From an uncultured Methanomicrobiales archaeon (lineage in GTDB: Archaea > Halobacteriota > Methanomicrobia > Methanomicrobiales > Methanospirillaceae): DNA of 64,000 nucleotides. Under the pieces are notes generated by a model. The model was given only the letters and a program-made list of their open reading frames with translations. It made no database searches and had not been told where the DNA came from. This document shows, one piece after another, positions 32,304 through 62,223 of this stretch (positions within the stretch are counted from its first letter, which is position 1; each line of letters begins with the position of its first letter). The stretch is from positions 64,001 through 128,000 of the forward strand of contig CAVWXH010000016.1 in NCBI GenBank assembly GCA_963758915.1. Direction: 5' to 3'. The translations under genes and the position numbers were made by a program.

Positions 32304-32317
32304 GGAGGTAGTAAAAC

Positions 32318-33370
32318 ATGGCTGAAGTGAGGGCTGGACCAGCTCCTTATATTTATGTCTGTACAAGGATGCGGGTCAGGAAATCAAAACTCCTGCCGAA
32401 AGAAGAGTACCTCAGGATGCTGAATATGGGCCTCCCGGAGATCACCCGGTCGATAGAAGAACTTGAGTATAAGAGGGAAATTGACGAACTGAGCTCCTCG
32501 TTTCATGGTATTGATCTGCTCGAGATCGCCTTATCATGGAACCTTGCCAAGGAATACCAGGCCATTATCGCTATCACTCCTGGAACACTCAAGGCATTTA
32601 CACAGGCCTACCTGAGGCGCTGGGATATTCAGAATGTCCTTACCATTCTCCGGGGTAAACGGCAGGGCCTGAAACCGGGAAAAATCAAGGAAATTCTGAT
32701 CCCGGCGGGTGAACTAGACCGTGTGTTCCTTGACCGGCTACTCCTTGAGGACTCACCTGAAAGAATTGTCGAGGCACTTAAGGGGAAGAAGCTGTACCCG
32801 GTAATTGTAACGGAATTCCCAGGGGCAGTCCAGAGTAACTCGCTTTCCCACATGGAAAATGAGTTGTATAAGGATTTCTACCAGGATCTCATCAGCGATG
32901 CAAACGCGATGAAGGGTGGAAAACTGTTCCTCAATTATATCAGCCTTGATATCGACATCACCAATATCAAGAACCTCTTCCGGCTCCGTGTCGATTCGAT
33001 ACCGGAGGACGCACGGGAGATGATGATCCCTGGCGGAACTTTTTCTGTGGACGATCTGCACAGGTTAAGCAGTATCACTGACCAGAATGAGTTCATTGAT
33101 GCCCTCATGGAAAAAGTCCGTGTAAAGACCCTCCTCGCAGTTCTCGACAAATTGCGCGGGGACAAACCGATCCGTGAGATTGAGATTGACCTGATAAAAG
33201 TGCAGATCGAGCAGATGGAGAAAATGGCAAAATTAAACCCGGTTTCTATCCACCCGATCCTCGTGTATCTTGAGAAGAAAAAGTACGAAGTCTTCAATCT
33301 GCGTGCTATTGCCCGTGGCAAGGAGTCAAAACTCCCCACTGACCGGATAAAAGGGTACCTGGTGATGTAG
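32318..33370 (+). CDS. ahaC: A1Ao ATP synthase subunit C
   Basis: YIYVCTRMRVRKSKLL, DIQNVLTILRGK and EVFNLRAIARGK motifs. Confidence 0.95.
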   Translation: MAEVRAGPAPYIYVCTRMRVRKSKLLPKEEYLRMLNMGLPEITRSIEELEYKREIDELSSSFHGIDLLEIALSWNLAKEYQAIIAITPGTLKAFTQAYLRRWDIQNVLTILRGKRQGLKPGKIKEILIPAGELDRVFLDRLLLEDSPERIVEALKGKKLYPVIVTEFPGAVQSNSLSHMENELYKDFYQDLISDANAMKGGKLFLNYISLDIDITNIKNLFRLRVDSIPEDAREMMIPGGTFSVDDLHRLSSITDQNEFIDALMEKVRVKTLLAVLDKLRGDKPIREIEIDLIKVQIEQMEKMAKLNPVSIHPILVYLEKKKYEVFNLRAIARGKESKLPTDRIKGYLVM

Positions 33371-33673
33371 ATGGAGATTGCAGTCATTGGTAACAGTGAG
33401 TTCATCTTAGGGTTCCGGCTTGCCGGAATAAGGAAGACGTACGCAGCAGAAAACGAAGCAAAGCTCACAGAATATATCAACGGGGTTCTTGGGGACAACG
33501 ATGTCGGGATCCTTGTCCTGAACAATAGTGATATGAACCGGATCCCGGTACGGCTCAGAACACAACTCGAAAATTCGGTAAAACCGACGGTAATCGCAAT
33601 CGGCGGGGAAGAAGGCGGGTTGTCCATGAGAGAGAGAATCAAGAGATCAGTGGGTGTTGATCTGTGGAAGTGA
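33371..33673 (+). CDS. ahaF: A1Ao ATP synthase subunit F
   Basis: [18 protein letters not shown] and IKRSVGVDL motifs. Confidence 0.95.
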
Positions 33674-35430
33674 ATGAAAAAGATTCAAAAATCGACAAAA
33701 AGGGTGTTCTTAAAAGGATTTCAGGGCCGGTTGTCACGGCAGTGAATTTCGATGCCCACATGTACGACGTAGTCAAAGTCGGGAACGAGGCATTGATGGG
33801 CGAAGTCATCAAGATCCAGGGTGAGGAAACCATCATCCAGGTCTACGAAGATACTTCAGGCATCAAACCCGGGGAACCTGTAGTGAATACAGGACTTTCT
33901 CTTGCGGTTGAACTGGGCCCTGGTCTCCTGACAAATATCTACGATGGCATTCAGCGTCCTTTAAGCGTCCTCGTCGATAAGATGGGAAATTTCATCGAGA
34001 GAGGAGTTTCTGCCCCAGGGCTTCCCCACGATAAGAAGTGGGAATTTGTGCCCCTGGTCAAAGAAGGTGACAAGGTCATTGGCGGGAGTATCATCGGTGA
34101 AGTGCAGGAAACGAACATCGTCCATAAAGTCATGGTACCCCCGAATCTCAAGGGTGGGGCTGTAAAAAGCATTAAATCAGGCTCTTTTACCGTCGATGAG
34201 GTAGTGTGCGTTCTTGAGGACGGCACTTCATTAACCATGATGCAGCGCTGGCCTGTGCGGGTTCCAAGACCTGTAAAAGAAAAGCTGAACCCGGAGATCC
34301 CGTTGATTACCGGTCAGCGGATACTCGACGGGCTCTTCCCGATCGCAAAAGGAGGCACAGCAGCAATCCCTGGCCCGTTCGGAAGCGGTAAAACCGTCAC
34401 CCAGCAGCAGCTTGCAAAATGGAGTGATGCGGAGATCGTGGTCTACATCGGCTGCGGTGAACGCGGCAATGAAATGACAGAAGTGCTGACGGAATTCCCG
34501 GAACTCGAAGACCCGAAGACCGGCAAACCACTGATGGAGAGGACCGTTCTTATTGCAAACACGAGCAACATGCCGGTGGCGGCACGAGAAGCATCGGTGT
34601 ATACCGGTATCACGATTGCGGAGTATTTCCGTGATATGGGATACGATGTCTCGCTGATGGCAGATTCCACCTCACGATGGGCGGAAGCAATGCGTGAGAT
34701 CTCATCACGTCTTGAAGAGATGCCTGGTGAGGAAGGATACCCTGCATATCTTGCAGCCCGGCTCTCGGAATTCTACGAACGTGCAGGACTTGTGATTACC
34801 CTCGCTGGTGGAAATGGTTCCGTATCAGTTATCGGTGCAGTTTCCCCCCCTGGTGGAGATTTCTCCGAGCCTGTTACCCAGAATACCCTCCGTATTGTCA
34901 AGGTGTTCTGGGCGCTCGATGCGAAACTTTCGCAGCGCCGTCATTTCCCGGCCATCAACTGGTTAAACTCATATTCCCTGTACCTTGATACCCTCCACGA
35001 CTGGTACGACCGCGAGGTCTCACCCGAGTGGAACACATTGAGGTCATGGGCAATGGAAGTCCTCCAGAAAGAGGCCGAGCTCCAGGAGATCGTGCAGCTG
35101 GTAGGGTCAGACGCATTGCCTGAGACTGAACAGATCACGATCGAGGTTGCCCGCATGATACGTGAGATCTTCCTCCAGCAGAATGCCTATGATCCGGTCG
35201 ACACGTTCTGTGACATGAAGAAGCAGTATGATATTATGAAGTCGATCAAGTTGTTCGCCGACCTTTCGGCGGCAGCACAGGCAGCAGGTGTGACTCCGAC
35301 ACAGATTATTGCTTCCAAAGCGAAGAACGACCTGCCGCAGATCAAATTCATCAAGGACTACCAACCTGAGCTCGAGAGGATTGAAAAAGAGATGGATGCA
35401 GAATTCAATGCACTGAGGGCGGCAGCATGA
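33664..35430 (+). CDS. ahaA: A1Ao ATP synthase subunit A
   Basis: [16 protein letters not shown] and [11 protein letters not shown]; 588 aa, no intein. Confidence 0.98.
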
Positions 35431-36815
35431 AGGAATACAGGACGATTTCTAAAATTGCCGGTCCTCTCGTGTTTGTCGAGAAGACCGAGCCTATCGGGTA
35501 CGGTGAGCTGGTCAACATTGTGACCTCTGATGGTACCATTAAGCGTGGGCAGGTGCTCGATACGAGCGATAATCTCGTCGTTGTGCAGGTCTTTGAGACG
35601 ACTGCAGGTATCGGAAGGGACAGTGGTGTCCGTTTCACCGGTGAAACCATCAAAATGCCTGTCGGAAAGGAGATGCTCGGACGTATCCTCTCTGGTGGCG
35701 GGAAGCCGATTGACGGCGGCCCTGAAATAGTCCCGGAAAAACGCCTGGATATCACCGGTGCGGCAATCAATCCCTATGCGCGTGCATCACCGAACGAATT
35801 TATCCAGACCGGTATTTCAACCATTGACGGGACGAACACACTTGTCAGGGGACAGAAGCTCCCGATTTTCTCGGCAGCGGGTCTTCCCCACAATAATGTG
35901 GCCCTGCAGATCGCCCGGCAGTCAAAAGTGATCGGTTCCACGGAGCCTTTCGCCGTGGTTTTCGCTGCCATGGGTATCACGAAGGAAGAGGCAAACCACT
36001 TCATGAAGGACTTTGAGCGTACAGGGGCGCTCGAGCGTGCAGTAGTGTTCTTAAACCTCGCTGATGACCCGGCAGTCGAACGGATTATCACCCCGCGTCT
36101 TGCCCTCACAACGGCCGAGTACCTTGCATTTGAACTTGGGATGCACGTGCTGGTTATCCTTACCGACATGACCAATTATTGTGAAGCACTCCGTCAGATT
36201 GGCGCGGCCCGTGAAGAAGTGCCAGGTCGCCGTGGTTATCCCGGTTACATGTACACCGACCTTGCAAGCATCTACGAACGTGCAGGGATTATCAAGGGCC
36301 TGAAAGGTTCTGTAACCCAGATCCCGATCCTTACGATGCCGGGTGACGATATCACGCACCCGATCCCTGACCTTACCGGGTACATTACCGAAGGACAGAT
36401 CGTGGTTTCCCGTGAGCTCCACCGGAAGGGTATTTACCCGCCAATCAACGTTTTGCCCTCATTATCCCGCCTGATGAACCTTGGTATCGGAAAAGGTCAT
36501 ACAAGGGAAGACCACAAAAAGGTCTCTGACCAGATGTATGCCGGGTATGCGGAAGGAAACGACCTCCGTGGCCTGGTCGCGATCGTGGGTAAGGATGCCC
36601 TTTCAGAACGTGACCGGATGCTTCTTGAATTTGCAGACCTCTTTGAACAGCGGTTTGTAAAACAGGGATACGACGAGGACAGGACAATCGTGGACACGCT
36701 TGATCTCGGCTGGGACCTGCTCTCGACATTACCCGTGGAACAGCTCACCCGTATCGATCGGGACCTTATCAACCGGTATCATCCCAAATTTAAAGCCGGG
36801 GCAGCAAAGGAGTAA
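35427..36815 (+). CDS. ahaB: A1Ao ATP synthase subunit B
   Basis: GQKLPIFS and [17 protein letters not shown] motifs. Confidence 0.98.
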
Positions 36816-36821
36816 CGTCAC

Positions 36822-37451
36822 ATGGCGCTCAGAGATATTAAGCCAACACGTTCAGAACTGATCAACCTTAAAAGGAGGATTGCGCTCTCCGAGCGTGGCT
36901 ATAAAATTCTCAAGATGAAGCGTGACGGACTGATCCTTGAATTTTTCAAGGTTCTTGCGGATGCCAAAGACAGCCGTGGAGAACTGCTGCAGAAATACCA
37001 GCGGGCAGTTGAAAGCATGGCGCTTGCGAACACGGTAGAAGGAGCAATCGGGGTAAAATCAGCTGCATTCTCCGTTAAGGAGGTACCCCAGATCATCCTG
37101 ACCTCCAAAAATATCATGGGGGTTGTCGTGCCAAAAATCGAGTCTTCGAAGGTGAGAAAGAGCCTTGTCGACCGTGGGTACGGTGTCCTCGGCACCACCT
37201 CGATTATCGATGAGACCGCCACCTCCTTTGAGGAGCTCGTTGAAGCGATCATCGAGAGTGCAGAGATCGAGACCACGATGAAACGACTCCTTAGTGAGAT
37301 CGAGTCAACAAAGCGCCGTGTTAATGCGTTAGAGTTTAAGGTGATCCCGGAACTTTCCGAGGCACGGGACTTTATCAAGATGCGTCTCGATGAGATGGAA
37401 CGGGAAGAACTCTTCCGCCTTAAGAAGATCAAGGCAAGAATGAAAGCATAA
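36822..37451 (+). CDS. ahaD: A1Ao ATP synthase subunit D
   Basis: KPTRSELINLK and TKRRVNALE motifs. Confidence 0.97.
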   Translation: MALRDIKPTRSELINLKRRIALSERGYKILKMKRDGLILEFFKVLADAKDSRGELLQKYQRAVESMALANTVEGAIGVKSAAFSVKEVPQIILTSKNIMGVVVPKIESSKVRKSLVDRGYGVLGTTSIIDETATSFEELVEAIIESAEIETTMKRLLSEIESTKRRVNALEFKVIPELSEARDFIKMRLDEMEREELFRLKKIKARMKA

Positions 37452-48674: not shown

Positions 48675-49259
48675 ATGACGATTGAAGAACTTTTATCCGG
48701 GAATGAGCAGTTTCGGAGTGTACAGTTTAAGAAAAATATCAGCGTGTACAATGAACTGGCCAGAGGGCAGAAACCCGAGATACTCTGGATTGGGTGCTCG
48801 GATTCTCGTCTCCAGACCGGGCATATCACGGATTCAATGCCTGGGACCCTGTTCATTCACAGGAATATCGGGAATATGGCTGCTCTCAATGACTGGAATC
48901 TTTCGACTGTGCTTGAATACGGGATTAAACATCTAAAAGTCAAACATATCGTGATCTGCGGGCATTCGGATTGCGGCGCAATCAAAGCCCTCGACAAGGA
49001 CCTCGATGATGCATACATACCAAACTGGCTGAACAACGCAATGGATGCAAAAAAACGTGTTGATGCAAAGATCCCAAAGCCTGGCACGCCGGCAGAATTA
49101 AAAGAACGTTCAACGATGATCGAGCAGGAGAATGTCAGGCTGCAAATCGAACATTTAAAAACATACCCCCTTGTCAGGGACGCTATTCATGCGAAGAGTA
49201 TCCAGGTCCATGGCCTTTATTATGATCTTGACACGGGACTGCTCACAAAAATTGTGTAA
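48675..49259 (+). CDS. can: Beta-class carbonic anhydrase
   Basis: IGCSDSR, HRNIGN and CGHSDCG motifs. Confidence 0.96.
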   Translation: MTIEELLSGNEQFRSVQFKKNISVYNELARGQKPEILWIGCSDSRLQTGHITDSMPGTLFIHRNIGNMAALNDWNLSTVLEYGIKHLKVKHIVICGHSDCGAIKALDKDLDDAYIPNWLNNAMDAKKRVDAKIPKPGTPAELKERSTMIEQENVRLQIEHLKTYPLVRDAIHAKSIQVHGLYYDLDTGLLTKIV

Positions 49260-50283: not shown

Positions 50284-50790
50284 TCACATAAACCTTTCAA
50301 AACGGTCTTTTTTGGCCTTACAAACCGGGCAGACCAGGGGGGCTTCATCCCTCGCGCAGAGATAGCCGCAAACCCTGCAGCGCCAGACCGGGTACGACAG
50401 GGATCCTGTCTGGGTTGTATGAATCGTTTTCCTGCTGTTTCTTTCACACCGTGGGGGCCTTCGCTCAGGCACGCAGGAAAGGGACTGTTTATTCGACAGG
50501 ATAGCATCAGAAACATACAAAGCGCAGTAACAGGCGCCATACTGGTCAAGGTCCGGGTCGCGGTAATCACATGGACATATGATGTCGAGATCTTCGGCTT
50601 TTATCCCTTTTGAGAAGCGGCAGGGACACGCAGGATATCCATACCGGGCTTCATTAATTAGCAACCCACGGACAAGTTTTTTTGTAAACTCCTTGTCAGG
50701 GCCAAGGTGGTAGCCGCCTTCTCTGGCCTCTCGGTCAAGCACCTGGTACTTTTTCTCCACGTCATCCTGGTTGATGTCCTCCATGTTCAT
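50284..50790 (-). CDS. Ferredoxin:thioredoxin reductase catalytic-type protein with C-terminal rubredoxin (ferredoxin:disulfide reductase-like)
   Basis: CPCR, CPC and CYC FTR motifs; WRCRVCG..CPVC rubredoxin domain. Confidence 0.92.
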
Positions 50791-51068
50791 TGCCTGAATG
50801 CACCCCTGATCTCTTCCTCCCGGAACCCGATTACGGCTTTCCGATCATTGATGATGAGCGTAGGAAACGATCCAGCCGGGTTCCACTTCTCGATGAGTGC
50901 AATTGCATCGTCCATCTCTTCTGGTGGCAGAAGATCGACATAGACAAAATCAAAGGCAATTCCGAGTTCTTTTAATAATTCCTTGGTCTTACTGCACCAT
51001 CCGCAGGTAGAGAGTGCAAACAGTACGACCTTCCCTTCATTGTTTCCATCTACATGTTCCATTTTCAT
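50787..51068 (-). CDS. Glutaredoxin/NrdH-like redoxin
   Basis: STCGWC and SFPTL motifs; RBS GGAGG before ATG 51068; ATGA overlap with the FTR gene. Confidence 0.9.
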
Positions 51069-51377
51069 AGTATCCTCCAGGTCAGGGGTTTTCTTTGCCA
51101 ATTAGCATTGCGAGGAGTAGTATATAAGGGTTCATTGAGTGAACGATAGTACCGTTTTACAACTCACGGTGACACAATCACCTTGACCAAGGCCAATTTA
51201 TTACTGGTATATCCAGGGTGTTTCCATTTCCTAATCATTGTGCAATTTCTCACAGATTTAACACGGTGACCTTGTGATAAACCGGATTACCCTGATTATA
51301 AACCCCCTGAAAGATTGGGATTATCAGAAATCATTTACCATATGGCGATGGAATACTTGTAACAGAGGTATCTGCCG

Positions 51378-53408
51378 ATGACCGAGATGATGACCGCAAT
51401 AAAACTAGGCAATGCAAGCCTGAAGGAGAAAATGAATGCTATAAATGGGCCCATTGCGTATGAAGAGACTGCATATCACCTTCCTGTTGCCTATGCCCTC
51501 ACAGGCCGCCCGGTACATACAGCACAGGAGGCGATCGAGGTGTACAATCTCACCAGCGAAAACCCATTTGTTGCGTGTGAGTCTTTGATGGCCTTTTATG
51601 AACAGGGCCCGGGCCGTGAACCTGCCCCGTATACCGGGTTTATCGGAGATGCAGTACTCAGAAAACTCGGGTACTCACTTGTTGACGGGAGTATCCTCGG
51701 ACTCGCGCTCGTGATTGGTACCCCCGGGAACTCCGATACGGCCTCCCGGATATGCAGGGAGCTTCAGGAAAAATACATGCTTACCTTCCTTGCCGGGGAC
51801 GTGGTAACCTCTCTCTCGTCAGCTTCGGTTAAACTGGGACTTGAGTACCGGCTTATCCCTCTCGGTTCAACATCCATCCATGGCGTGCATTTTGTTGATA
51901 TCATCACCCGTGTTGCCCTGATGTTCGGCGGGGTTGTCCCTGGTGACCCGGGCAGGCTGCTGGCCTATGCAAACCAGCGTGCAAAAGCGATTGCGATCGT
52001 ATTTCCAGGTCTCGATAATGAAGGTATTGCCCTGGTTGACGCTCTGCGGCTCCTTGGTATCCCGATCCTGTCTCTCGGGGGATACGAGGGTGGTGAGTGG
52101 ACCTCGACGGTCCCGCAGGACGCTGTCAGGGAAGGGATGGAAAGAAAAGGGATCAAGGTTACCGTTACGGCTATCCCTATCCCGATGTCATGTTCCCCGG
52201 CATTTGAAGGCAAGAGTATAAGAAAGGAAGAGATGTACGTGGAATTCGGCGGGGGTCGTTCTCCTGCATTTGAGCTGCTCCGTGTAAAATCTGCATCTGA
52301 AGTAACTGATGGCCTGATCCGCGTTATGGGTCCTGAAATTGAGTCTGTTAAGGAGGGCTCGGCAGTCCCTCTTGGAATTATTGTTGATGTCGCAGGAAAA
52401 TCAATGAGGAAGGACTTCGAACCCGTTTTAGAGCGAAGGATCCATAATTTCGTCAATTATGGTGAAGGATCATGGCATGTTGCACAGCGTGACCTCATCT
52501 GGATAAGAATCTCAAAAGAAGCAGTAAAAAACGGTATAAAAATCGAGCATATCGGCAAGCTTATCGCGACCAAGTTCAGGATTGATTTCCCTGACCTCCT
52601 GGACGCTGTCCAGGTAACAATGGTGACAGACCTCCAGGCTGTTCTGGCAGGAAAAAAGGATGCGGAGGCAATTTACGAGGAACGTGACAGGCGTATCCAG
52701 GGGATGAAAGATACCGATGTTGACCTGTTCTATTCCTGCACGCTCTGCCAGACCTTCGCACCAAACCATGTCTGTATTATCACACCCGAAAGGCCCGCGC
52801 TATGTGGCGCAATCTCCTGGCTGGATGGTAAAATTGCATATGAAATATCACCTTCTGGTGCAAACCAGCCTGTTGAGAAAGGGGTAGTTATTGACAGGGA
52901 TAAGGGAGAATTCGAAGGTGTGAACCGTTTTGTAAAGAAAGCCTCGCATGGAGAGGTTGAACGTTGTTCCCTGTACAGTATAATGGAATACCCGATGACA
53001 TGTTGCGGGTGCTTTGAATGCATAGCCCTGATGCTCCCCGAGGTGAACGGCATCATGGTCGTGAACCGCGAATACAAGGGGGACACACCCTCCGGCATGT
53101 CTTTTTCAACGCTTGCAGGGACAATCGGTGGTGGTGCCCAGACGCCTGGTTTCGCCGGGATCTCTAAAAATTATATCCTTTCTGACCGTTTTTTACAGGA
53201 TGAAGGGGGAATTGAACGACTTGTCTGGCTCCCATCCCTGGTAAAAGAGGAGCTGAAAGAACGGCTCGTTAAGAGACTGAATGAACTTGGTCACCCGGAC
53301 CTGTTTGAAAAAATTGCCGATGAGACGAAGGCAACAACCTTAGAGGAACTGGTTGCATTCCTCGACGAAGTACAGCACCCGGCACTCACTATGAAACCGT
53401 TACTATGA
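51378..53408 (+). CDS. acsB: Acetyl-CoA synthase, bacterial-type long form
   Basis: A-cluster ligands CTLC..LCG and PMTCCGCFE. N-terminal domain TAYHLP, PYTGFIGD and FGGVVPG as in bacterial AcsB; 676 aa. Confidence 0.93.
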   Translation: MTEMMTAIKLGNASLKEKMNAINGPIAYEETAYHLPVAYALTGRPVHTAQEAIEVYNLTSENPFVACESLMAFYEQGPGREPAPYTGFIGDAVLRKLGYSLVDGSILGLALVIGTPGNSDTASRICRELQEKYMLTFLAGDVVTSLSSASVKLGLEYRLIPLGSTSIHGVHFVDIITRVALMFGGVVPGDPGRLLAYANQRAKAIAIVFPGLDNEGIALVDALRLLGIPILSLGGYEGGEWTSTVPQDAVREGMERKGIKVTVTAIPIPMSCSPAFEGKSIRKEEMYVEFGGGRSPAFELLRVKSASEVTDGLIRVMGPEIESVKEGSAVPLGIIVDVAGKSMRKDFEPVLERRIHNFVNYGEGSWHVAQRDLIWIRISKEAVKNGIKIEHIGKLIATKFRIDFPDLLDAVQVTMVTDLQAVLAGKKDAEAIYEERDRRIQGMKDTDVDLFYSCTLCQTFAPNHVCIITPERPALCGAISWLDGKIAYEISPSGANQPVEKGVVIDRDKGEFEGVNRFVKKASHGEVERCSLYSIMEYPMTCCGCFECIALMLPEVNGIMVVNREYKGDTPSGMSFSTLAGTIGGGAQTPGFAGISKNYILSDRFLQDEGGIERLVWLPSLVKEELKERLVKRLNELGHPDLFEKIADETKATTLEELVAFLDEVQHPALTMKPLL

Positions 53409-53419
53409 GGTGATTGCTG

Positions 53420-54373
53420 ATGGCAGAAAACAGCCCGGATTTGGAAGGAAAAATTGGTTACGTTGTCCTTGGGGCAACAAAGGAAGAAGGCGGTACGAGG
53501 TCTGTTTCATACCGCCTCGGTGGTGAATCAGATCTACCTTTCATAGGGATGAACACATCAGCAGGTTCGATCCCGCTTGTGGCGTTTGAAATCTGTGATG
53601 ACGCTTCGTACTGGTCCCCGATAGTTACTTCGTATATTGGTGATCTCGCAACTGATACCCCGGAATGGGCAACTGCAGCCGAAAAACAATACGGAGCAGA
53701 CCTTGTCCGGCTATACCTGACCAGTACGAAACGCCGTGGATTCGACGATTTCCCTTCAATTTCAAAGGTAACTGATGAGGTACTATCCGGCACGGGGCTT
53801 CCACTCGTCGTGGAAGGGAGTAATGAACCGGCAATCGACTCAGAGATATTCCAGCGGTGCGGTGAGGCCGGGCAGGGCGAACGCCTGCTCCTTGGTACTG
53901 CCGAGGCAGGGAGGTACCGCAGTGTTGCCGCTGCAGCGATGGCCTACAATCATTCCGTGGTTGCACAATCTCCAATTGACATCAACCTCGCGAAACAGCT
54001 CAATATCCTCCTCCGTGAAATCGGCCTGAAATCGGACCATATTATGATTGACCCGTATACGGGGTCACTCGGATACGGGTTTGAGTATTCCTATTCAGTA
54101 ATGGAACGGATACGCTATGCTGCGTTAAAGGGTGATAATGACCTTTCCATGCCGATGATTGCCTCGGCCACGGACTCCCTCAGCGTAAAAGAAGTCCGGG
54201 AGGCAGATGCCGCGATCAGGGACGATATAGCCGTTGCATGGGAATTTTATGCAGCACTCTCCTCGGCAGTTGCCGGGGCGTCCATCGTTTGTGTACGGCA
54301 CCCAAAGACGGTTCCCCTGCTGAAACAGGCCTTCCGCGAATTATGGGCTGGAAAAAAGCCCGGGGGGGCCTGA
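53420..54373 (+). CDS. acsD: Corrinoid Fe-S protein small subunit (AcsD/CdhD)
   Basis: LGATKEEGGTR, SPIDINLAKQLN, DPYTGSLGYGFEYSYSVMERIR and RHP motifs. Confidence 0.93.
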   Translation: MAENSPDLEGKIGYVVLGATKEEGGTRSVSYRLGGESDLPFIGMNTSAGSIPLVAFEICDDASYWSPIVTSYIGDLATDTPEWATAAEKQYGADLVRLYLTSTKRRGFDDFPSISKVTDEVLSGTGLPLVVEGSNEPAIDSEIFQRCGEAGQGERLLLGTAEAGRYRSVAAAAMAYNHSVVAQSPIDINLAKQLNILLREIGLKSDHIMIDPYTGSLGYGFEYSYSVMERIRYAALKGDNDLSMPMIASATDSLSVKEVREADAAIRDDIAVAWEFYAALSSAVAGASIVCVRHPKTVPLLKQAFRELWAGKKPGGA

Positions 54374-54377
54374 AACC

Positions 54378-55715
54378 ATGGCACTAAAAGCCCTTGATAT
54401 TTACAAGCTACTGCCTAAAAAGAACTGCAAAGAGTGCGGGGACCCGACATGCCTTACCTTCGCAATGAAACTCGCCAGCGGTAAGGGTGATATTGATAAA
54501 TGCCCCTATCTGGACCTCAATGCGAAAAATATTCTTGGTGCGTCAACACGCCCGCCGATCCAGCTGGTGAAAATCGGGGTTGGAGAACGGAGGTTTGCAG
54601 TTGGAGAGGAATTCGTGGTCTTCCGCCATGAAAAAACGTTTTATCACCCGCCGGGAATCATGTTCCAGGTATCTGACCTCTGGCCCGCTGAAAAAATTGA
54701 ATCTGTGACAAGGAGAGCAGGGTCAGAACATTTTGTCAGGGTAGGGACCGATTTAACCTTTTCGGGAGTCGCAATAACGAATGAAAGCAGAGACCCGGAT
54801 GTATTTGCAAAGGCTGTGGGCGTTGTTGAGGCAACAGGGACGCATATTCCCGAAGTATTAATGGCGGCGGACCCTGCGGTACAGGAAGAAGGCCTTAATA
54901 AATGCGGAAATTTCCGCCCTCTTATCTACTCAGCCACGAAAGACACGTACAAACCAATGTGTGCCCTTGCGAAGAAATTCGGGTCCCCGCTTGTTGTAAG
55001 TGCAAAAGACCTTGAATCGCTGGGTGAGATGACAAAACTCTGTAATGCAGAAGGTATAACCGACCTGCTTCTTGACCTGTCGTTCCCCTCACTCCGGGAC
55101 TATATCCCTGCAGCAACCGAAATCCGGCAGAAATCGATCTCGCGGTCAGCGCCAGAACTTGGTTATCCCATCTTCCTAGATACAACACGGTACGGGATGC
55201 AGGAAACGGCGCTTGTCCTGGGAATTGACAAATATGCAGGAGTGATCGTGACCCCGGCACTTGGACCTGCACCATCAGTAGCGGCACTTACCCTGCGCCA
55301 GAATATTTATACCGACCCCCAGAAACCAATACAGATGAACCCGGGGATATATCCGGTTGGTAACCCGGGAAAAGAGTCACCGGTACTGCTTACGGTAAAC
55401 TTTTCGCTGACCTACTTCACCGTTCAGGGGTACCTTGAGTCAAGCCGGATTCCCTGTTACATGTTCATCGTCGACACCGAGGGGTTGTCTGTACTTACTG
55501 CGGTTGCAGCGGGAAAGCTGAATGAGACACTTGTCCGTGACTCCATCAAAAAATTCGACCTCGAAAATCTCGTTTCACACCGCCGTCTGATTATTCCTGG
55601 CTATGCATCGCCGCTTTCCGGTAAGATCGAAGAGGAGACCGGCTGGAAGATCCTGGTAGGGCCACGTGATGCCGCAGAAATTGGCGACTACCTTGTAAAG
55701 GAGTGGAAAATCTAG
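54378..55715 (+). CDS. acsC: Corrinoid Fe-S protein large subunit (AcsC/CdhE)
   Basis: LPKKNCKECG.PTC..CP [4Fe-4S] motif, NIYTDPQKP, TVNFSLTYF and VGPRDA. Confidence 0.95.
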   Translation: MALKALDIYKLLPKKNCKECGDPTCLTFAMKLASGKGDIDKCPYLDLNAKNILGASTRPPIQLVKIGVGERRFAVGEEFVVFRHEKTFYHPPGIMFQVSDLWPAEKIESVTRRAGSEHFVRVGTDLTFSGVAITNESRDPDVFAKAVGVVEATGTHIPEVLMAADPAVQEEGLNKCGNFRPLIYSATKDTYKPMCALAKKFGSPLVVSAKDLESLGEMTKLCNAEGITDLLLDLSFPSLRDYIPAATEIRQKSISRSAPELGYPIFLDTTRYGMQETALVLGIDKYAGVIVTPALGPAPSVAALTLRQNIYTDPQKPIQMNPGIYPVGNPGKESPVLLTVNFSLTYFTVQGYLESSRIPCYMFIVDTEGLSVLTAVAAGKLNETLVRDSIKKFDLENLVSHRRLIIPGYASPLSGKIEEETGWKILVGPRDAAEIGDYLVKEWKI

Positions 55716-57632
55716 ATGGCCTCCATCACGTTCCTTCCCAGTTACCGGAAGATCACCGTGGACCCCGGGAGTACCATTCTTGATGCAATCCAGAAAGCCC
55801 AAATCCAGATGAATGTTGTCTGTGGCGGCCAGGGTAAGTGCGGAAAATGTATTGTCTACATAAAAAACGGTTTAGTAGATTTTGATCATGAAAAATTCGG
55901 AAAATTTTTTACTGCCGATGAACTGGACCAGGGTGCATGTCTTGCCTGCCAGGCTGTTGTCAGGGATGACCTCCATGTCATGATCCCTGAAAGTTCACTT
56001 ATCCAGCAGCAGAAAATCCTGATGGAATCGCTTGGTATTGAGACCCCTTTTCAGCCGTCTGTATGGAAATATTATGTTGAGCTCTCACCCCCGACACTTG
56101 AAGACCCGTCCCCTGACCTCACGCGGCTTGTATGGGGGGTCCAGAAACAGGGTGGACCCCTGGCAGAGAAAATGTATGCTCCCCTGGATGTCCTCCGGGG
56201 GATGCCCCGTGTCCTCCGTGACAGCGGGTGGAGGGTTACCGCAACCCTCGCACTTGTACCTGGCGGGTACCGGATTATTGATATTGAGAAGGGTGACACC
56301 AGAAAGGAACTCTACGGGGTTGCCATAGATCTCGGCACTACCACGGTTGTTGCATATATTCGTAGTCTTGTTGATGGGCATGTTGTCGGTATTGCATCAA
56401 ATTATAACCGCCAGATCAGCTGCGGAGAGGACATCCTGTCGAGGGTGAATTTCGCAAGAAAGAACGGGCTCCCCAAGTTACAGTCGCTTGCAGCCGAGAG
56501 TATCAACCTTGCAATCACCACTGCCGCGAATGGTGCCGGGATCGACAGGGAGGATATCTATGAGGTTGTCGTTGCCGGGAACACAATCATGACCCACATC
56601 CTCCTTGGTATTGACCCGGCGTACATGATCGAGGAGCCCTATGTCCCGGTAGTGAGGCGTTACCTGACCACCGCAGCACCGAGGCTAGGGATTGAGGTTG
56701 CGAAGGATGCTTCGGTCTTCTTATTTCCTGCCGTTTCTGATTTCATTGGTGGTGATATCATTGCTGATATCCTTGCGTCCGGTATGGGTGAACGGGATGA
56801 GATATCACTTCTTGTAGATATCGGAACAAATTTTGAGGTGGTACTTGGGAACCGTGACTGGATGTTCTCGTGTGCCGGGGCTGCAGGGCCTGCCCTTGAA
56901 GGTGGGGAGGTCCTCTTCGGGATGAGAGCGAACCCCGGTGCAATTGAACGCATCATGATAGATCCGGTAACGCTGGAGCCCCAATACCAGACCATAAACA
57001 GCATAAAACCGATGGGGATTTGTGGTTCCGGGCTTATCGACCTTCTTGCCGACCTTCTCAGGGCCTGCGTCGTGGACAGGACAGGGCGGATCAACACTGA
57101 AATTATCCATCCGCGTATCAGGCAGGGTACCCATTGCCCTGAATATGTGATTGCATGGAAACAGGAAAGTGGAAATAACAAGGATATTGTAATTACCGAG
57201 AATGATATCAAGAACCTGATCATGAGCAAGGCGTCAGTCCTCGCTGCATGCATTACTCTTATGAAACAGGCAGGAATTACGAGAAACGAGATATCAACTA
57301 TTTATTTTTCAGGGGCATTTGGAAATTATATCCACAAGGAACATGCGATCATGATCGGGCTTATTCCTGAGGTACCAGTGGAGCAGATTAAAAACATTGG
57401 GAACGGGGCCGTCGAGGGAGCAAATATGGCATTGATAAACCGGAAAAAGAGAAAAACACTTGATGAAATTGCAAGGAATATCGCCTATATCGAGCTGAAT
57501 GCCGAGTCGTCCTTTATGGATGAGTACACCGGCAGCTCGTTCCTTCCCCATACAGACCTCTCGTTATTCCCGGGGGTCCAGAAAATGCTCGATGAGTGCC
57601 GGTTGAAAAAAATTTCCCGGGGTGTACCATAA
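55716..57632 (+). CDS. acsV: ATP-dependent corrinoid reactivating protein (RACo/AcsV; ASKHA + 2Fe-2S)
   Basis: CGGQGKCGKC..CLAC, DLGTTT, DIGTN, AAGPALEG, GICGSG and SGAFG motifs. Confidence 0.92.
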   Translation: MASITFLPSYRKITVDPGSTILDAIQKAQIQMNVVCGGQGKCGKCIVYIKNGLVDFDHEKFGKFFTADELDQGACLACQAVVRDDLHVMIPESSLIQQQKILMESLGIETPFQPSVWKYYVELSPPTLEDPSPDLTRLVWGVQKQGGPLAEKMYAPLDVLRGMPRVLRDSGWRVTATLALVPGGYRIIDIEKGDTRKELYGVAIDLGTTTVVAYIRSLVDGHVVGIASNYNRQISCGEDILSRVNFARKNGLPKLQSLAAESINLAITTAANGAGIDREDIYEVVVAGNTIMTHILLGIDPAYMIEEPYVPVVRRYLTTAAPRLGIEVAKDASVFLFPAVSDFIGGDIIADILASGMGERDEISLLVDIGTNFEVVLGNRDWMFSCAGAAGPALEGGEVLFGMRANPGAIERIMIDPVTLEPQYQTINSIKPMGICGSGLIDLLADLLRACVVDRTGRINTEIIHPRIRQGTHCPEYVIAWKQESGNNKDIVITENDIKNLIMSKASVLAACITLMKQAGITRNEISTIYFSGAFGNYIHKEHAIMIGLIPEVPVEQIKNIGNGAVEGANMALINRKKRKTLDEIARNIAYIELNAESSFMDEYTGSSFLPHTDLSLFPGVQKMLDECRLKKISRGVP

Positions 57633-58666
57633 TGGCGGTTCACCTGGCATCGCCCGGCAGCCTGGCGACCGGTATAGGGAGTCTTCCGCATACCGACCCT
57701 GTACTGGCATGTAATGAGGTAGTAAGGATATTCCCGCAGCTACCATATGCCCCCTCACTTCCCAACAGGGGATTACTGGAAAATATTGTATTTTGTGATT
57801 CAGAACGCCTCCCTGGCAGGGTAATCAGGGAGGGAAGACTGCTTGTTGACCGGAAAGCGGATCTTTCGGGTGTAATGGAACAGATTTATCTTGATTACAT
57901 TGAAGGGAATTATTCCCCTTACGCAATAGCAACAGAATATGCCTCAGGCTTTCACGAATTTAAAAGGAGGAAATTTAATTCTCCGTTCGCCCTGAAATGC
58001 CAGGTCACGGGACCGGTGACGTTTGGCATGCAGGTTGTGGATGCAGAAAAACGGCCGGTCTATTATGACAGCCAGTACGCCGATGTCCTCTCGAAGCTGA
58101 TCGCACTCCGGGCCCGCTGGCTCGAACAGACACTGACCGGGGATACCGGGGTTGCGAATACCATTGTAATGGTGAACGAACCATATCTCGCAGCCCTTGG
58201 GTCATCGGTAGTCCCGATAGACATGGATTCTGTCAAATCAGGCTGGCATGATATCGCAGATCTGCTCCAGGGAAGCACAGGCATTCATTGCTGCAGTAAT
58301 ACCGACTGGAGTTTTATATTCTCGCTTGACCCGGGAATCGTATCATTTGATGCCTACGCGACGACGAAGGAATTTCTCCTGTACAGGGATGATCTTTTTT
58401 CCTACCTCGAACGGGGAGGGGTTGTTGCATGGGGTGTTGTACCTGCCGACAACCGTGTTTTTTCCTTGGAAACCCCGGAATCACTGTATGAGCGCTATAT
58501 GGGTATCAGAAAAGAGGTGACCTCGTATATCCCTGAAAAATTATTTGATGCCCAATCAATAATAACCCCAAGCTGTGGAATACGATTCGCAAATGAAACG
58601 GAATCCTGTAGTATTATGGAAACAGCTGCAATGATATCATCCCGTGTTCGGGGGGCATACAATTAA
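57632..58666 (+). CDS. Core (single-barrel) methylcobalamin-dependent methionine synthase, MesB-like
   Basis: ATGIGSLPH, KCQVTGPVTF, VNEPYL, Zn ligands GIHCC and TPSCG, SFDAY, AWGVVP; 344 aa; TAATG overlap with acsV. Confidence 0.75.
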   Translation: MAVHLASPGSLATGIGSLPHTDPVLACNEVVRIFPQLPYAPSLPNRGLLENIVFCDSERLPGRVIREGRLLVDRKADLSGVMEQIYLDYIEGNYSPYAIATEYASGFHEFKRRKFNSPFALKCQVTGPVTFGMQVVDAEKRPVYYDSQYADVLSKLIALRARWLEQTLTGDTGVANTIVMVNEPYLAALGSSVVPIDMDSVKSGWHDIADLLQGSTGIHCCSNTDWSFIFSLDPGIVSFDAYATTKEFLLYRDDLFSYLERGGVVAWGVVPADNRVFSLETPESLYERYMGIRKEVTSYIPEKLFDAQSIITPSCGIRFANETESCSIMETAAMISSRVRGAYN

Positions 58667-58724
58667 TGAACGATTATAGTAGTGTATTTTTTCTTTGCAG
58701 GCCGGAAAAAGGGAGGTGGTACAG

Positions 58725-59498
58725 ATGATCGTCCCGTATACCATTGCCGTAGCGGGGAAAGGGGGCACAGGGAAGACGACAATTAGTTCCCTGCTTGTGC
58801 GGGCACTTATCGGGCTTGGGAAAGCACCGGTGCTTGCGGTGGATGCTGACCCGAATGCAAATTTTCATGAAGCACTTGGCGTGGAGGTACTGGAAAACCT
58901 TGGCGGGATGCGCGAAGATGCATTCACGAAGAGTATTCCTGCCGGGATGACCCGCACCGATTATATTCGGTTCCGGTTTTACCAGGTCCTCGTTGAGGAC
59001 GATGGTTTTGACCTGATAGCGATGGGCAGGCCTGAAGGGACCGGCTGTTATTGTTTTGCAAATGACCTCCTTAAAACGTGTATGCGTCTGTTAGAGCGTG
59101 ATTACCAGTTTATCATTATAGATTCAGAGGCGGGGATGGAACATATCAGCAGGGGGACTATTGGTATACCTGACCTCCTCCTGATCGTGAGTGACCCGGG
59201 TGCACGGGGTCTCCGTACAGCCTCCAGGATAATCGATATTGCCCTGGACCTTGGTATCAGCCGTTCTGCCATGCACCTGGTTTTTAACCGGTATAAAAGT
59301 GGCGTAGCCCCGGCCGGGGCTTTTCAGGACCCCCCTATCGCGGTGGTCCCCTACGATCCTGCCGTAGAAGCTGCTGACCTTGAGGCATCACCGGTGTCCC
59401 TGATACCTGGTGGGAGTCCTGCAAGAGAAGCGGTGGAGGAATTGGCTGTTAAACTGATTGGATTTGCAGATAAAAAGGAAAGCGAAAGGGTGAAATAA
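58725..59498 (+). CDS. cooC: CooC/AcsF nickel-insertion ATPase
   Basis: GKGGTGKTT, DADP, GCYC and DSEAGMEHISRG motifs. Confidence 0.92.
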   Translation: MIVPYTIAVAGKGGTGKTTISSLLVRALIGLGKAPVLAVDADPNANFHEALGVEVLENLGGMREDAFTKSIPAGMTRTDYIRFRFYQVLVEDDGFDLIAMGRPEGTGCYCFANDLLKTCMRLLERDYQFIIIDSEAGMEHISRGTIGIPDLLLIVSDPGARGLRTASRIIDIALDLGISRSAMHLVFNRYKSGVAPAGAFQDPPIAVVPYDPAVEAADLEASPVSLIPGGSPAREAVEELAVKLIGFADKKESERVK

Positions 59499-59660
59499 CT
59501 CAAACCAGAGTATTTTTCGAATGGCGGGCCATCTGGGATGGTTTCGTACCGGGCCGCTTTTTACTCCTGACCTGGAGCAGGTGATACGTGCCTCATTGCC
59601 GGGGGCTGTGGTTAGTGACCGTAGCAAATCCATAAAATAGAACGGAATCATACGATTGGT

Positions 59661-60372
59661 ATGGAATCCTCTGAGCGGGAAGATTATCTTGAAGCAGTAC
59701 CTGGTGAGGCATCTTGCTGCACAGGGCACTCCTACTGCAAAAGATATTGCACAAGATCTGTCCCTTGGGGAGGATACCACATCAGCGGACTTAAAAACCC
59801 TTGGAATAGAGGGTGACCTTGTTTTCGATGAAAAAGGGGCAGTCAGTCTTACGGATCAGGGACGCAGCATAGCAGAACGCGTACTGAAAAAACATCGTGT
59901 ACTGCAATGTTTCCTCGGTGAGATCCTCGGGATGGATGAGGATGCAGCATCGGATGAGGCATGTATACTGGAGCATTCCATATCCGATACAGCCATCAAC
60001 CGGATAGGAAATTACGTGAATAAAACCGGACCCCGGAATAAATCCTCCTGTCAGAGGCTGATGAATAATTATCTTCTTAACCCCCCGTCTTCTGGTACAC
60101 TACCCCGGGTACCGGAGGTCTCACCAGCTGGATCATCCCCTGCCCCGGTATGCAGTTCTCTCATCGATGCAATGGAATCCATACCCCTGACGGTCATGGG
60201 AATCACGGGTGGAGAGTATCTCCACCGGCTGATCGACCTCGGGGTAATTCCCGGGGAAGTAGTTATTTTAAGGCGAAGACTGCACAACAACGCAGTTGTC
60301 CTCCAGGTTAAGGAATGTGACATCGCGTTATCACCTGAGATCGCAGGGACTATTCTCGTGGAGAAACTGTAA
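59661..60372 (+). CDS. DtxR/MntR-family metal-dependent repressor with C-terminal FeoA domain (+1 indel at ~59700)
   Basis: MESSEREDYLEAV in one frame joins LVRHLAAQG..; KKHRVLQCFL, EACILEH and RLIDLGVIPG motifs. Confidence 0.85.
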
Positions 60373-62223
60373 ATGAAGATCGGGCTTATTGGAAACCCCA
60401 ATGTCGGGAAATCCCTGATCTTCAACCAGTTGACCGGGCTCGGTGTTGAGGTAAGTAATTATCCCGGTACAACAGTCGGACTTGAAAAGGGACATGTCTG
60501 CTACCAGCGTGAAAAATTTGAAATCTGTGACCTCCCCGGCATTTATTCGCTTGACGGGGATTCAGATGAAGAAAAACTTGTCAATGGCATGCTGGAACGC
60601 CATGAACTTGACCTGGTAATTGCGATACTGGATGCAGTCCACCTTGAAAGAAACCTGTACCTGTTTCTCCAGGTGGCGGAATATGGCCTGCCGATGCTGG
60701 TTGTCCTGAATATGGCGGACGAGGCAGAAAAATTTGGTATATCGGTAGACTCATCAGAACTATCGATAATTCTTGGTTGCCCGGTTATTATGACCGCAGC
60801 AATCCATGGAAGGGGCACTGGCCAGATCCTCCCTGCTGCGCTCAGTTCTGCCTGCCCTGCAACCGTTATCGTTGCGTATGACCACCACATCGAGGCTGCA
60901 GTCAGAAGCATTATGGGTAACTTCCCTGTCTCAAGACCGGTTGCCATCCGGTCACTCGAAGGGATCGGGCCAGATAAGGAAATGCTTGATTCATCTGCGG
61001 CAATAGCAAACGAGATAGAAAACCGGCACAAGATGTCCCCGCGCCAGATTATTTCAGCAAACCGTCACCATTTCGCGGAACAACTGGCAGACCGGGTGAT
61101 TACTACCAGGCTGAAAAAACCAGCGTTCGACCTGGACCGGCTTCTTACAAAGAGTATACCCGGCATCCCTATTATGGCCGCCATACTTATCGGGATCCTG
61201 GTCGTGGTATTTACCATAGGTTCATGGCTTGAAGGAATTATTGTTGCTTTCTTTACCACCTACCTGGTCGCACCACTCCTTTCGCTCAGCCTGCCACCGC
61301 TCCTTTTACAGGTATCAATTTCCGTATTACTTGGAATTCAGGCAGGGATTGGCATCGCATTGCCTTTCATTTTTACGTTCTATATCTTCATATCAATATT
61401 AGAGGACTCAGGCTACCTGACCCGGGCGGCCTTCCTGGCAGACCAGGCAATGCACAGGATCGGCATGCACGGCCAGGCAATAATTCCGCTTATACTTGGA
61501 TTCGGCTGTACTGTGCCTGCGGTGATGAGCATCCGGCTCCTCGCATCGCGCCGTGAGCGTTTTATTGCCTCATTTCTCGTGACCATGATCCCGTGCTCAG
61601 CCCGGACAGTGATTATCGCCGGGGTCGTCGCAACCTTTGTTGGTATCTGGTGGGCACTTTCAATTTACCTTATCGTGTTTATTCTTGTCGTGTTTACCGG
61701 GCTGTTTCTCTCCCGGATAACCCCGGGAGAACGATTCGGTATGATCATGGAGATGGCGCCGCTCCGGGCACCGCAGGCCGGTAACGTGGTGAAAAAATCA
61801 TGGGGAAAAATTTCTGAATTTCTCATCATTGCGATGCCCCTGCTGATAATCAGCAGTGTAATACTCGGGTTGCTGCAGTATTATGGCGTGATTACTGCAT
61901 TTACGAATTTTATCGAGCCATTTTCAACAATGGTGCTCGGGCTTCCTGCCTACGCAACAACGGCCCTGATGTTCGGGATCCTCCGAAAGGAGATGGCACT
62001 CGGGGCATTGGTTGTCCTTGCCGGTACCCCTGCACTGGATACGGTAATGACCCAGGTCCAGCTGTATACCTGGGCTATCATCAGCGTACTGTTTGTCCCG
62101 TGTATTTCCACGATTGCCGTGCTCTACCGGCAGATGGGGTTAAAGACGGTTGTCCTGGTGACGATGTACACGTTGATTCTCGGGCTGGCAATCGGAGCTG
62201 GTATCCACCTGGCGTTCCCCTGA
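60373..62223 (+). CDS. feoB: Ferrous iron transport protein B
   Basis: GNPNVGKS, NYPGTT, DLPG, NMAD, EDSGYL and GFGCTVPA motifs. Confidence 0.96.
   Translation: MKIGLIGNPNVGKSLIFNQLTGLGVEVSNYPGTTVGLEKGHVCYQREKFEICDLPGIYSLDGDSDEEKLVNGMLERHELDLVIAILDAVHLERNLYLFLQVAEYGLPMLVVLNMADEAEKFGISVDSSELSIILGCPVIMTAAIHGRGTGQILPAALSSACPATVIVAYDHHIEAAVRSIMGNFPVSRPVAIRSLEGIGPDKEMLDSSAAIANEIENRHKMSPRQIISANRHHFAEQLADRVITTRLKKPAFDLDRLLTKSIPGIPIMAAILIGILVVVFTIGSWLEGIIVAFFTTYLVAPLLSLSLPPLLLQVSISVLLGIQAGIGIALPFIFTFYIFISILEDSGYLTRAAFLADQAMHRIGMHGQAIIPLILGFGCTVPAVMSIRLLASRRERFIASFLVTMIPCSARTVIIAGVVATFVGIWWALSIYLIVFILVVFTGLFLSRITPGERFGMIMEMAPLRAPQAGNVVKKSWGKISEFLIIAMPLLIISSVILGLLQYYGVITAFTNFIEPFSTMVLGLPAYATTALMFGILRKEMALGALVVLAGTPALDTVMTQVQLYTWAIISVLFVPCISTIAVLYRQMGLKTVVLVTMYTLILGLAIGAGIHLAFP

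Follow-up and report, generated by a model that had tools for sequence, protein, structure and literature searches.

A putative bacterial-type operon for acetyl-CoA cleavage and methyl transfer, encoded apart from carbon monoxide dehydrogenase, in Methanomicrobiales

In a 64,000-nucleotide stretch of DNA from an uncultured Methanomicrobiales archaeon of the Methanospirillaceae (GenBank assembly GCA_963758915.1, contig CAVWXH010000016.1, positions 64,001 to 128,000 of the forward strand; hereafter the window), six co-oriented open reading frames (ORFs) on the plus strand, at positions 51378-59498, form the row acsB-acsD-acsC-acsV-MesB-like-cooC-like. They encode a bacterial-type acetyl-CoA synthase (ACS), the two subunits of a corrinoid iron-sulfur protein (CFeSP), the corrinoid activator RACo, a zinc methyltransferase resembling the core methionine synthase MesB, and a CooC/AcsF-like ATPase. 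Judging from sequence comparisons, we consider on balance that these genes form an accessory operon, widespread in Methanomicrobiales, that moves the methyl group of acetyl-CoA to the CFeSP and from there to a thiol, most likely homocysteine, independently of carbon monoxide dehydrogenase (CODH). In the route that we envisage, the three-domain AcsB would cleave acetyl-CoA at its Ni-Ni-[4Fe-4S] A-cluster, freeing CoA and CO, and would pass the methyl group to the Co(I) of the AcsC/AcsD CFeSP. The MesB-like zinc enzyme would then move it from CH3-Co(III) to a zinc-held thiolate, probably turning homocysteine into methionine. RACo would re-reduce cobalt that had been oxidised accidentally, and the CooC/AcsF-like ATPase would insert nickel into ACS. 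The CO released could be oxidised by the CooS of this genome.

The reading frames of all six genes are intact in this genome and closely packed (Table 1). With acsD started at its ATG, 11 nt separate acsB from acsD, followed by gaps of 4 nt (acsD-acsC) and 0 nt (acsC-acsV) and by a TAATG overlap of -1 nt between acsV and the MesB-like gene (gene 5); these are the spacings given in a preliminary description of this DNA. The cooC-like gene (gene 6) begins 28 nt after gene 5 if it starts at TTG 58695, or 58 nt after it at the likelier start, ATG 58725, which is preceded by GGGAGGTGG.

Four of the six products were placed by family models and motifs. AcsB scored 899 bits on NF040764 (cut-off 800) over residues 6-675, matched PF03598 and PF19436 in addition, and aligned over residues 23-676 with solved bacterial ACS chains at 543-637 bits. 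Archaeal CdhC, in contrast, covers residues 268-670 only (377 bits), and in this region AcsB is 47% identical to the CdhC encoded by its own genome. Both A-cluster motifs, C454-x2-C457-x8-C466-x9-C476 and C550-G-C552, were found in AcsB and line up with their counterparts in that CdhC; we take the four cysteines to be the ligands of the [4Fe-4S] cluster and the Cys-Gly-Cys motif to hold the nickel sites. Both CFeSP subunits exceeded the cut-offs of their models, with 352 bits on NF003376 (cut-off 280) for AcsD, which also matched PF03599, and 528 bits on NF003195 (cut-off 306) for AcsC, which matched PF03599 and the PF04060 FeS domain. In the RACo protein, the Fer2, RACo_linker, Raco_middle and RACo_C_ter domains all scored above the Pfam cut-offs, and the protein stayed below the cut-off of the NCBIfam AcsV 'exception' model NF040756 (560 bits versus 800). 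Gene 6 gave only generic matches, to PF01656 (CbiA), PF13614 (AAA_31) and MinD-type P-loop proteins, and reached no cut-off of a specific family. Its translation carries the P-loop GKGGTGKT and a C-Y-C motif; a metal-binding C-x-C motif together with a deviant P-loop is what we take to be the hallmark of CooC/AcsF proteins. Gene 6 shares 33% identity with another cooC-like gene of this genome, which lies close to the cdh operon, and a cooC-like gene follows the MesB-like gene in every related locus that extends that far.

Gene 5 had been labelled a 'core MetE' in the preliminary description. This label needed other evidence because the protein matches no Pfam or NCBIfam model: sequence searches of Pfam, NCBIfam and the PDB returned nothing even at an E-value of 10, and a Pfam domain is recorded for none of 120 gene-5 homologues among the matches listed. 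We therefore turned to the family as a whole, which comprises 2499 proteins at E ≤0.001 among 7067 candidates; its cluster representatives number 1468 at E ≤0.001, and 270 reach E ≤1e-30. The family alignment, A1, consists of 92 representative rows. The zinc ligands H219, C221 and D240 occur in 92 of the 92 rows and C315 in 91, and all four are kept in 34 of 34 related archaeal loci. For DET0516, the MesB of Dehalococcoides mccartyi, the text of Price 2021 (PMC7857596) gives H214, C216, D235 and C311 as the zinc ligands. The spacing in gene 5 is +2, +21 and +96, the last of these measuring +97 in DET0516, and the pattern is thus the same. When the family profile was aligned by hhalign with the MesA of this genome, the probability was 96.8% (E 2.3e-10), and the HxC motif, the acidic ligand and the C-terminal cysteine were aligned with each other.

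The predicted structure pointed in the same direction. The AlphaFold2 model of gene 5 had a pLDDT (predicted local distance difference test score) of 96.8, and its best folds in Foldseek were MetE catalytic barrels and MesD (3RPD), with E-values of 4e-8 to 7e-6 and a TMq of ~0.6, followed by UroD and MtaA-type barrels. A profile search of the PDB gave a marginal match to 3RPD (E 0.28), which was used for residue mapping only. The single MetE-catalytic-type barrel of 344 aa, which lacks the folate-binding N-terminal domain, corresponds to the MesB architecture. By BLASTP, gene 5 aligned over its full length with the protein P0299, a proxy for DET0516 named 'methionine synthase [Dehalococcoidales bacterium]' by NCBI, at 36% identity and 228 bits; the MesB cut-off stated in the text of Price 2021 (PMC7857596) is a phmmer score of at least 173 bits to DET0516. 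The nearest bacterial homologues are mostly Chloroflexota-type records with 34-43% identity, and 'methionine synthase' is the NCBI name for Dehalococcoidales and Chloroflexota proteins among the homologues of P0272; a D. mccartyi entry was absent among the 120 homologues listed for P0272. Together, the profile, fold and zinc-ligand evidence bore out the earlier label and placed gene 5 with the MesB-type core methionine synthases.

The operon thus brings together ACS, CFeSP, RACo, a MesB-like enzyme and a nickel-chaperone-like protein, with the ligands of ACS and of the zinc site intact and with neither CODH nor AcsE in cis, in agreement with the self-contained module that had been proposed, as far as the stoichiometry of its parts goes. 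The only methyl acceptor enzyme that it encodes is the zinc thiol methyltransferase. We searched the assembly (2.38 Mb, 94% complete; its contigs are numbered here C1, C2 and so on, with the window on C16) for the genes that the module does without. Prismane-family matches numbered eight genome-wide, on C2, C10, C6, C15 and C5, with none on C16, and tblastn with the genome's own CdhA, CdhB and CooS gave matches confined to C15 and C2. AcsE was not found in this 94% complete genome; the sole match to Pterin_bind (PF00809) was a dihydropteroate synthase (DHPS) beside folD on C6, and one DHPS and one MtrH were all that turned up in the genome when pterin:corrinoid-type methyltransferases were looked for. 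The window is therefore free of CODH and acsE, as stated before. The term 'CODH-less', however, holds for the operon and not for the organism, because a complete archaeal cdhABCDE operon lies at C15:89501-96519 (cdhA, 1100 bits on TIGR00314) and a monofunctional cooS on C2 (679 bits on TIGR01702). A methionine synthase of the MesA type is encoded on C1 (PF01717 match; 359 bits on NF002119). Compared with Dehalococcoides, this genome likewise lacks a recognisable AcsE, but it does have CODH, and MesB is not its sole methionine synthase. Since the cdhABCDE-encoded acetyl-CoA decarbonylase/synthase (ACDS), CooS and MesA all coexist with it in the genome, the module would be a second, acetate-linked methyl route and not the sole one.

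Further genes for corrinoid and pterin chemistry were seen in the assembly. Directly 3′ of cdhABCDE, the stretch C15:96756-101184 (locus L012, 8756-10350 and beyond) contains a gene for an MtgC/MtaC-like corrinoid protein (221 aa) and a 319-aa ORF with a weak DUF166 match. The second cooC-like gene mentioned above also belongs to this stretch, as does an ASKHA gene of the RACo-like kind, which runs on the opposite strand. The native ACDS may therefore own an accessory set for corrinoid and activation functions. At C3:301897-302259 there is a stand-alone stretch that resembles the C-terminal, corrinoid-binding domain of AcsC/CdhE, with 32-35% identity across ~123 aa; it is perhaps an HgcA-like corrinoid protein. 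The DHPS on C6, of the bacterial type (TIGR01496), adjoins a bifunctional FolD (NF010775, 473 bits) at C6:88808-92506 (L096), a pair that hints at some folate-type C1 chemistry alongside that of tetrahydromethanopterin (H4MPT).

To see how far the gene arrangement is conserved, we used 80 loci fetched with the gene-5 profile, 37 from Methanomicrobiales and 43 bacterial (mostly Chloroflexota-type records). The full order acsB-acsD-acsC-acsV-MesB-like-cooC was found on one strand in 25 of the 37 Methanomicrobiales loci, and such a repeated order and strand argues that the arrangement is not due to chance. The remaining 12 run into contig ends or show local disruption (L046, L051, L065), and an alternative order was seen in none of the 37. 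Three of the 25 (L020, L021 and L023) carry insertions of 1.3-3.4 kb between acsC and acsV. In L051, an insertion within this size range separates acsV from the MesB-like gene. In L046 the MesB-like gene is interrupted by a stop and acsV gave no match, and L065 gave only a partial match to the MesB-like gene. Among 201 species genomes of Methanomicrobiales, a sample that was the same for each query, the MesB-like protein was found in 73, spread over 24 of 40 genera, and the N-terminal domain of AcsB also in 73. At least one of the two is present in 75 genomes and both are in 71; of the other four, which are 62-91% complete, two gave a match to the MesB-like protein alone and two to AcsB alone.

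As regards the bacterial counterparts of AcsB, proteins with 44-51% identity are encoded in four of five genomes reached via bacterial MesB loci (Dehalococcoidales, Dehalococcoidia, Chloroflexia and Candidatus Fervidifonticultor), and no AcsB match was obtained in the fifth, which is titled only 'bacterium'. We considered naming a donor of the operon and abandoned this, as neither these identities nor the scores of 543-637 bits to bacterial ACS chains single one out. A 2018 PNAS study by Adam et al. on CODH/ACS evolution reportedly discusses transfers of bacterial-type ACS genes into archaea.

It is very improbable that the operon has lost any role and persists as a decaying or functionally redundant remnant of horizontal transfer. 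Its spread is patchy, with carriers making up 73 of 201 genomes, and a few loci (L046, L065) are disrupted, as might be expected of a remnant. On the other hand, the six frames are intact in the window, the catalytic ligands are invariant across 34 loci, and order and strand are kept in at least six named genera; the genera named among the archaeal loci are Methanoregula, Methanolinea, Methanosphaerula, Methanoculleus, Methanospirillum and Methanofollis. In a FastTree phylogeny, moreover, the 35 archaeal rows (the window protein and 34 loci) formed one clade, together with one database representative, with an SH-like support of 100. Short contigs from three sediment RNA libraries, with at least 99% identity, covered parts of acsB, acsC and acsV as well as the MesB-like gene at its 3′ end, which is likewise at odds with a remnant. 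These contigs are consistent with transcription and are not proof of expression or co-transcription: the four RNA runs hold 7-9% of the sampled words, short contigs carry no signal of strand, level or co-transcription, and no RNA record in the four runs spans any gene junction by at least 31 nt on both sides.

The distribution of CODH genes among the carriers showed whether the module depends on a CODH partner. In the 201 genomes, archaeal cdhA was found in 45 and cooS in 104. Of the 73 carriers of the MesB-like protein, 10 have both cdhA and cooS (this genome included), 23 have cdhA without cooS, 30 have cooS without cdhA, and 10 have neither. Because a cdhA match is absent in 40 of the 73 carriers, and matches to both cdhA and cooS in 10, the module appears to be independent of a CODH partner. 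Five of the genomes with neither gene, all 98-99% complete, were checked. Each of the five encodes a full-length AcsB (65-74% identity); Prismane-family matches were missing in three, and the other two had one match of ~526-550 aa, a length fitting hybrid-cluster protein. The presence of the module in relatives where the searches revealed no CODH fits the acetyl-CoA cleavage route of the Dehalococcoides type that had been proposed for the operon.

A few genomes of the Methanoregulaceae type (L028, G163, G155 and G065) carry cooS on the strand of the operon, 2-4 kb 3′ of it. In L028 (12093-13532 and 15845-16711), cooS and its own cooC are placed 2.1 kb 3′ of the operon, past two ORFs without family matches.

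Conceivably, the module could also work towards synthesis, giving the cell a second ACS, of the bacterial type, that draws on free CO from CooS, CdhA or the environment. Methyl groups would then reach its CFeSP from a methyl-sulfur donor by the reverse reaction of the MesB-like enzyme, or else through an unlinked methyltransferase. The presence of cooS in 30 of the 40 cdhA-negative carriers and its position a few kb downstream in the genomes just mentioned would suit such a role. So would the best solved matches of AcsB (635-637 bits), which are CO-methylating ACS chains and, as we assume, include a monomer-active form using free CO. We nevertheless regard synthesis as improbable. The searches of this genome revealed neither AcsE nor another pterin:corrinoid methyltransferase, with one DHPS and one MtrH the only matches, demethylation of a thioether by Co(I), as in MT2-type chemistry, is energetically uphill, 10 of 73 carriers are without any CODH match, and a complete ACDS for synthesis is already present in the genome.

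If the methyl group does flow from acetyl-CoA to a thiol, as we favour, the next question concerns the thiol. In alignment A1 four further positions are near-invariant, namely S17 (88 of 92 rows), Q42 (82), M52 (84) and D182 (86), and the window protein has S17, S42, I52 and N182 at these places. In the 34 related archaeal loci, position 17 is Ala in 21, Gly in 6 and Ser in 7; position 42 is never Gln, being Thr, Ser, Gly or Val in 34 of 34; and position 52 is Ile in 34 of 34. Two of these positions have known equivalents in MetE, MesB and MesD: 17 is that of the Ser, and 182 that of the Asp, which bind homocysteine there, the mapping of 182 being backed by the MesA hhalign and the 3RPD alignment. 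According to the text of Price 2021 (PMC7857596), the homocysteine-binding residues MetE Asp599 and MetE Ser433 are equivalent to MesB 177 and MesB 15. In the window protein the homocysteine-binding Ser is thus present (Ser17) and the Asp is replaced (Asn182). The earlier claim that the enzyme makes methionine is consequently less secure than it seemed, as the Asp by which MetE and MesD bind the amino group of homocysteine is Asn or Ser here and in 30 of 34 loci.

These replacements form the case for a different acceptor, in which the module would be the same and the MesB-like enzyme of most Methanomicrobiales would methylate a thiol other than homocysteine, such as a cofactor thiol or sulfide. 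We consider this unlikely, although not far-fetched. All four replaced positions (17, 42, 52 and 182) are near-invariant across the family, two of them are the homocysteine-binding Ser and Asp (Price 2021, PMC7857596, text), the zinc ligands are unchanged in 34 of 34 loci, and the near-universal presence of MesA in the order (PF01717 in 193 of 201 genomes and in 143 of 144 high-quality genomes) would free a paralogue to diverge; carriers, indeed, always have MesA too, bar two incomplete genomes. However, the change from Asp to Asn is conservative and might still leave a hydrogen bond to the amino group, as the text of Price 2021 (PMC7857596) argues likewise for Gln in MesA and MesC, and Ser17 is retained in the window protein. 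Furthermore, Ser17 and Asp182 are both retained in four of the 34 loci (L030, L042, L043 and L052, of which L042 and L043 are titled Methanospirillum or Methanospirillaceae). The substitutions would therefore have arisen inside the archaeal clade, which began as a standard MesB. The changes could also reflect docking to the co-encoded CFeSP, and a place of Q42 and M52 in the pocket would be an assumption. Coenzyme M in particular was considered as the alternative acceptor and is unsupported, since the 20 clade-specific switches add no conserved basic residue that would fit a sulfonate. The residue changes may thus be tolerated substitutions or an adaptation to the CFeSP encoded beside the enzyme; that they mark a changed thiol substrate seems rather unlikely to us. 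Less likely again is the stronger statement that the enzyme of most Methanomicrobiales is no longer a methionine synthase but a methyl-CFeSP:thiol methyltransferase with a different acceptor. Methyl groups from acetate would in that case pass from a CODH-independent ACS straight to another sulfur compound, with H4MPT bypassed; a methanogenic cofactor thiol would be the extreme example.

A predicted complex of AcsC with the MesB-like protein lent weak support to the methyl transfer proposed between the two. Its score was 0.48, against 0.00 for the best of three controls. Of 80 solved complexes, 58 passed the mark that we used, as did 2 of 110 mismatched pairs; at scores no higher than 0.60, those that passed were only 7 of the 80 solved complexes and both of these mismatches. 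The three runs shared at least 83% of contacts, with a partner pLDDT of at least 89.

Several findings weigh against transfer of the acetyl-CoA methyl group to homocysteine. A second methionine route, being costly, has no obvious need in an organism with MesA, abundant methyl-H4MPT chemistry and a full ACDS. Position 182 is Asn in 27, Ser in 3 and Asp in only 4 of the 34 archaeal loci, and Asn182 of the window protein sits at the conserved Asp of the family, aligned with the Asp of the DEP motif of MesD 3RPD; because of this and the replacements at 17, 42 and 52, homocysteine binding by gene 5 is not assured. In addition, the assignment to MesB was made with the published ligand positions of DET0516 and a Dehalococcoidales proxy in place of the DET0516 sequence itself. 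Finally, acs genes were found near the MesB homologue in 0 of 43 bacterial loci, within the fetched flanks and with many of the contigs short. The synteny of acs and mesB that was looked for across archaea and bacteria hence appears to be specific to the archaeal clade.

The positions of the operon genes and of putative signals around them are collected in Table 1.

Table 1. Genes and putative signals of the operon (window positions)
Feature	Position	Strand	Description
acsB	51378-53408	+	Bacterial three-domain acetyl-CoA synthase, 676 aa
acsD	53420-54373	+	CFeSP small subunit, short bacterial type; ATG 53420, longest ORF from TTG 53414
acsC	54378-55715	+	CFeSP large corrinoid and [4Fe-4S] subunit, 445 aa
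acsV/RACo	55716-57632	+	ATP-dependent reductive activator of corrinoid proteins, 638 aa
MesB-like (gene 5)	57632-58666	+	Core-MetE-fold zinc methyltransferase, 344 aa
CooC/AcsF-like P-loop ATPase (gene 6)	58695-59498	+	Putative nickel-insertion chaperone; likely start ATG 58725
Putative promoter and ribosome-binding region	51295-51369	+	TATA-like ATTATAAA at 51295-51302 and AGAGGT at 51364-51369, before the acsB ATG
T6 run	58687-58692	+	Between the MesB-like and cooC-like genes; possible weak archaeal terminator or pause site, inferred from sequence
Two T5 runs	59513-59517, 59558-59562	+	3′ of the gene 6 stop codon; the transcription unit probably ends here

Directly 3′ of the cooC-like gene, at 59656-62223 (+), the window encodes a metal regulator of the DtxR type with a fused FeoA domain and then FeoB; that iron uptake genes stand beside an iron- and nickel-rich enzyme set may be a coincidence. 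Upstream of the operon, there are a beta-class carbonic anhydrase-like gene and a divergent pair of glutaredoxin-like and FtrB/rubrerythrin-like genes, at 48675-49259 (+) and 50284-51101 (-). An ordinary A-type ATP synthase operon (I-like subunit; A, B and D subunits) occupies 29481-37451 (+).

Should our interpretation be correct, many hydrogenotrophic methanogens would possess a side route in which acetyl-CoA is cleaved and CO set free, and by which acetate is connected with methyl-sulfur chemistry without the involvement of CODH or H4MPT. This would bear on the reading of 13C-acetate labelling in methanogens, on CO cycling in wetlands and sediments, and on the in vivo methyl donor of core methionine synthases, while the replaced substrate-binding residues pose a concrete question of specificity. 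To our knowledge, methyl transfer from CFeSP to MesB has only been proposed and never reconstituted. As every proposed partner is encoded together, the operon would be a convenient system for such a reconstitution.

The preliminary description knew of no account of this arrangement as an operon in Methanomicrobiales. The linkage of MesB and CFeSP genes, in mesB-acsC-acsD operons of methanogens, is already in print (Price, Deutschbauer and Arkin 2021, PLoS Genet, PMC7857596). The text of that paper shares with our analysis the MesB-CFeSP linkage, the finding that some Methanomicrobiales have MesA together with MesB, and the CFeSP as the inferred methyl donor. It differs in that it names only acsC and acsD and contains neither 'acetyl-CoA' nor 'carbon monoxide', although its figures and supplements may show more (PMC7857596). 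In the literature searched we found no other description of the operon in Methanomicrobiales, with the proviso that the figures or supplements of Price 2021 may list these genomes. What appears to be new here is the full composition of the operon, headed by a bacterial three-domain acsB and including RACo and a CooC-like gene, the fact that this genome has a native ACDS besides it, its presence in carriers that gave no CODH match, and the replacement of substrate-binding residues. For the near-invariant residues replaced in the archaeal clade, the literature searched seems to hold no description.

Among known systems, the incomplete Wood-Ljungdahl pathway of D. mccartyi is similar in that AcsB and AcsCD occur without AcsE (Deobald 2020, PMC7005905, text; Zhuang 2014 cited therein). 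Its methionine synthase is a MetE-fold zinc enzyme of 343-344 aa with H-x-C...D...C ligands and no folate domain, and the proposed route likewise leads from acetyl-CoA via CH3-CFeSP to methionine, with CO as a by-product (text of PMC7005905). As reported in the texts of Deobald 2020 (PMC7005905) and Price 2021 (PMC7857596), the characterised MesB of D. mccartyi works with methylcobalamin, and C2 of acetate supplies the methionine methyl group in that organism. In contrast, mesB of D. mccartyi (cbdbA481) stands beside the genes for S-adenosylmethionine synthetase and S-adenosylhomocysteine hydrolase and not beside acs genes, according to the text of Deobald 2020 (PMC7005905), in agreement with the lack of acs genes around the 43 bacterial loci. 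D. mccartyi moreover lacks CODH and any other methionine synthase, whereas here cdhABCDE, cooS and MesA are present and the module is contained in one operon. Gene 5 itself shares ~36-43% identity with its Chloroflexota relatives, and differs from them by Asn in place of the conserved Asp. The archaeal ACDS (CdhABCDE, on C15) employs the same A-cluster and corrinoid chemistry as the operon, but it has the CODH subunits CdhA and CdhB, uses H4MPT, and comprises a CdhC without the bacterial N-terminal domain and a long archaeal CdhD, none of which is found in the operon; the text of Anderson 2009 (PMC2686161) reports ACDS in M. hungatei and its absence from two other species. MesA (MTH775 type), finally, resembles gene 5 in its single MetE-type barrel, its zinc site and, per the literature, its use of methyl-corrinoid in vitro, whereas it matches PF01717 and NF002119, which gene 5 does not, so that the two are related at the profile level only.

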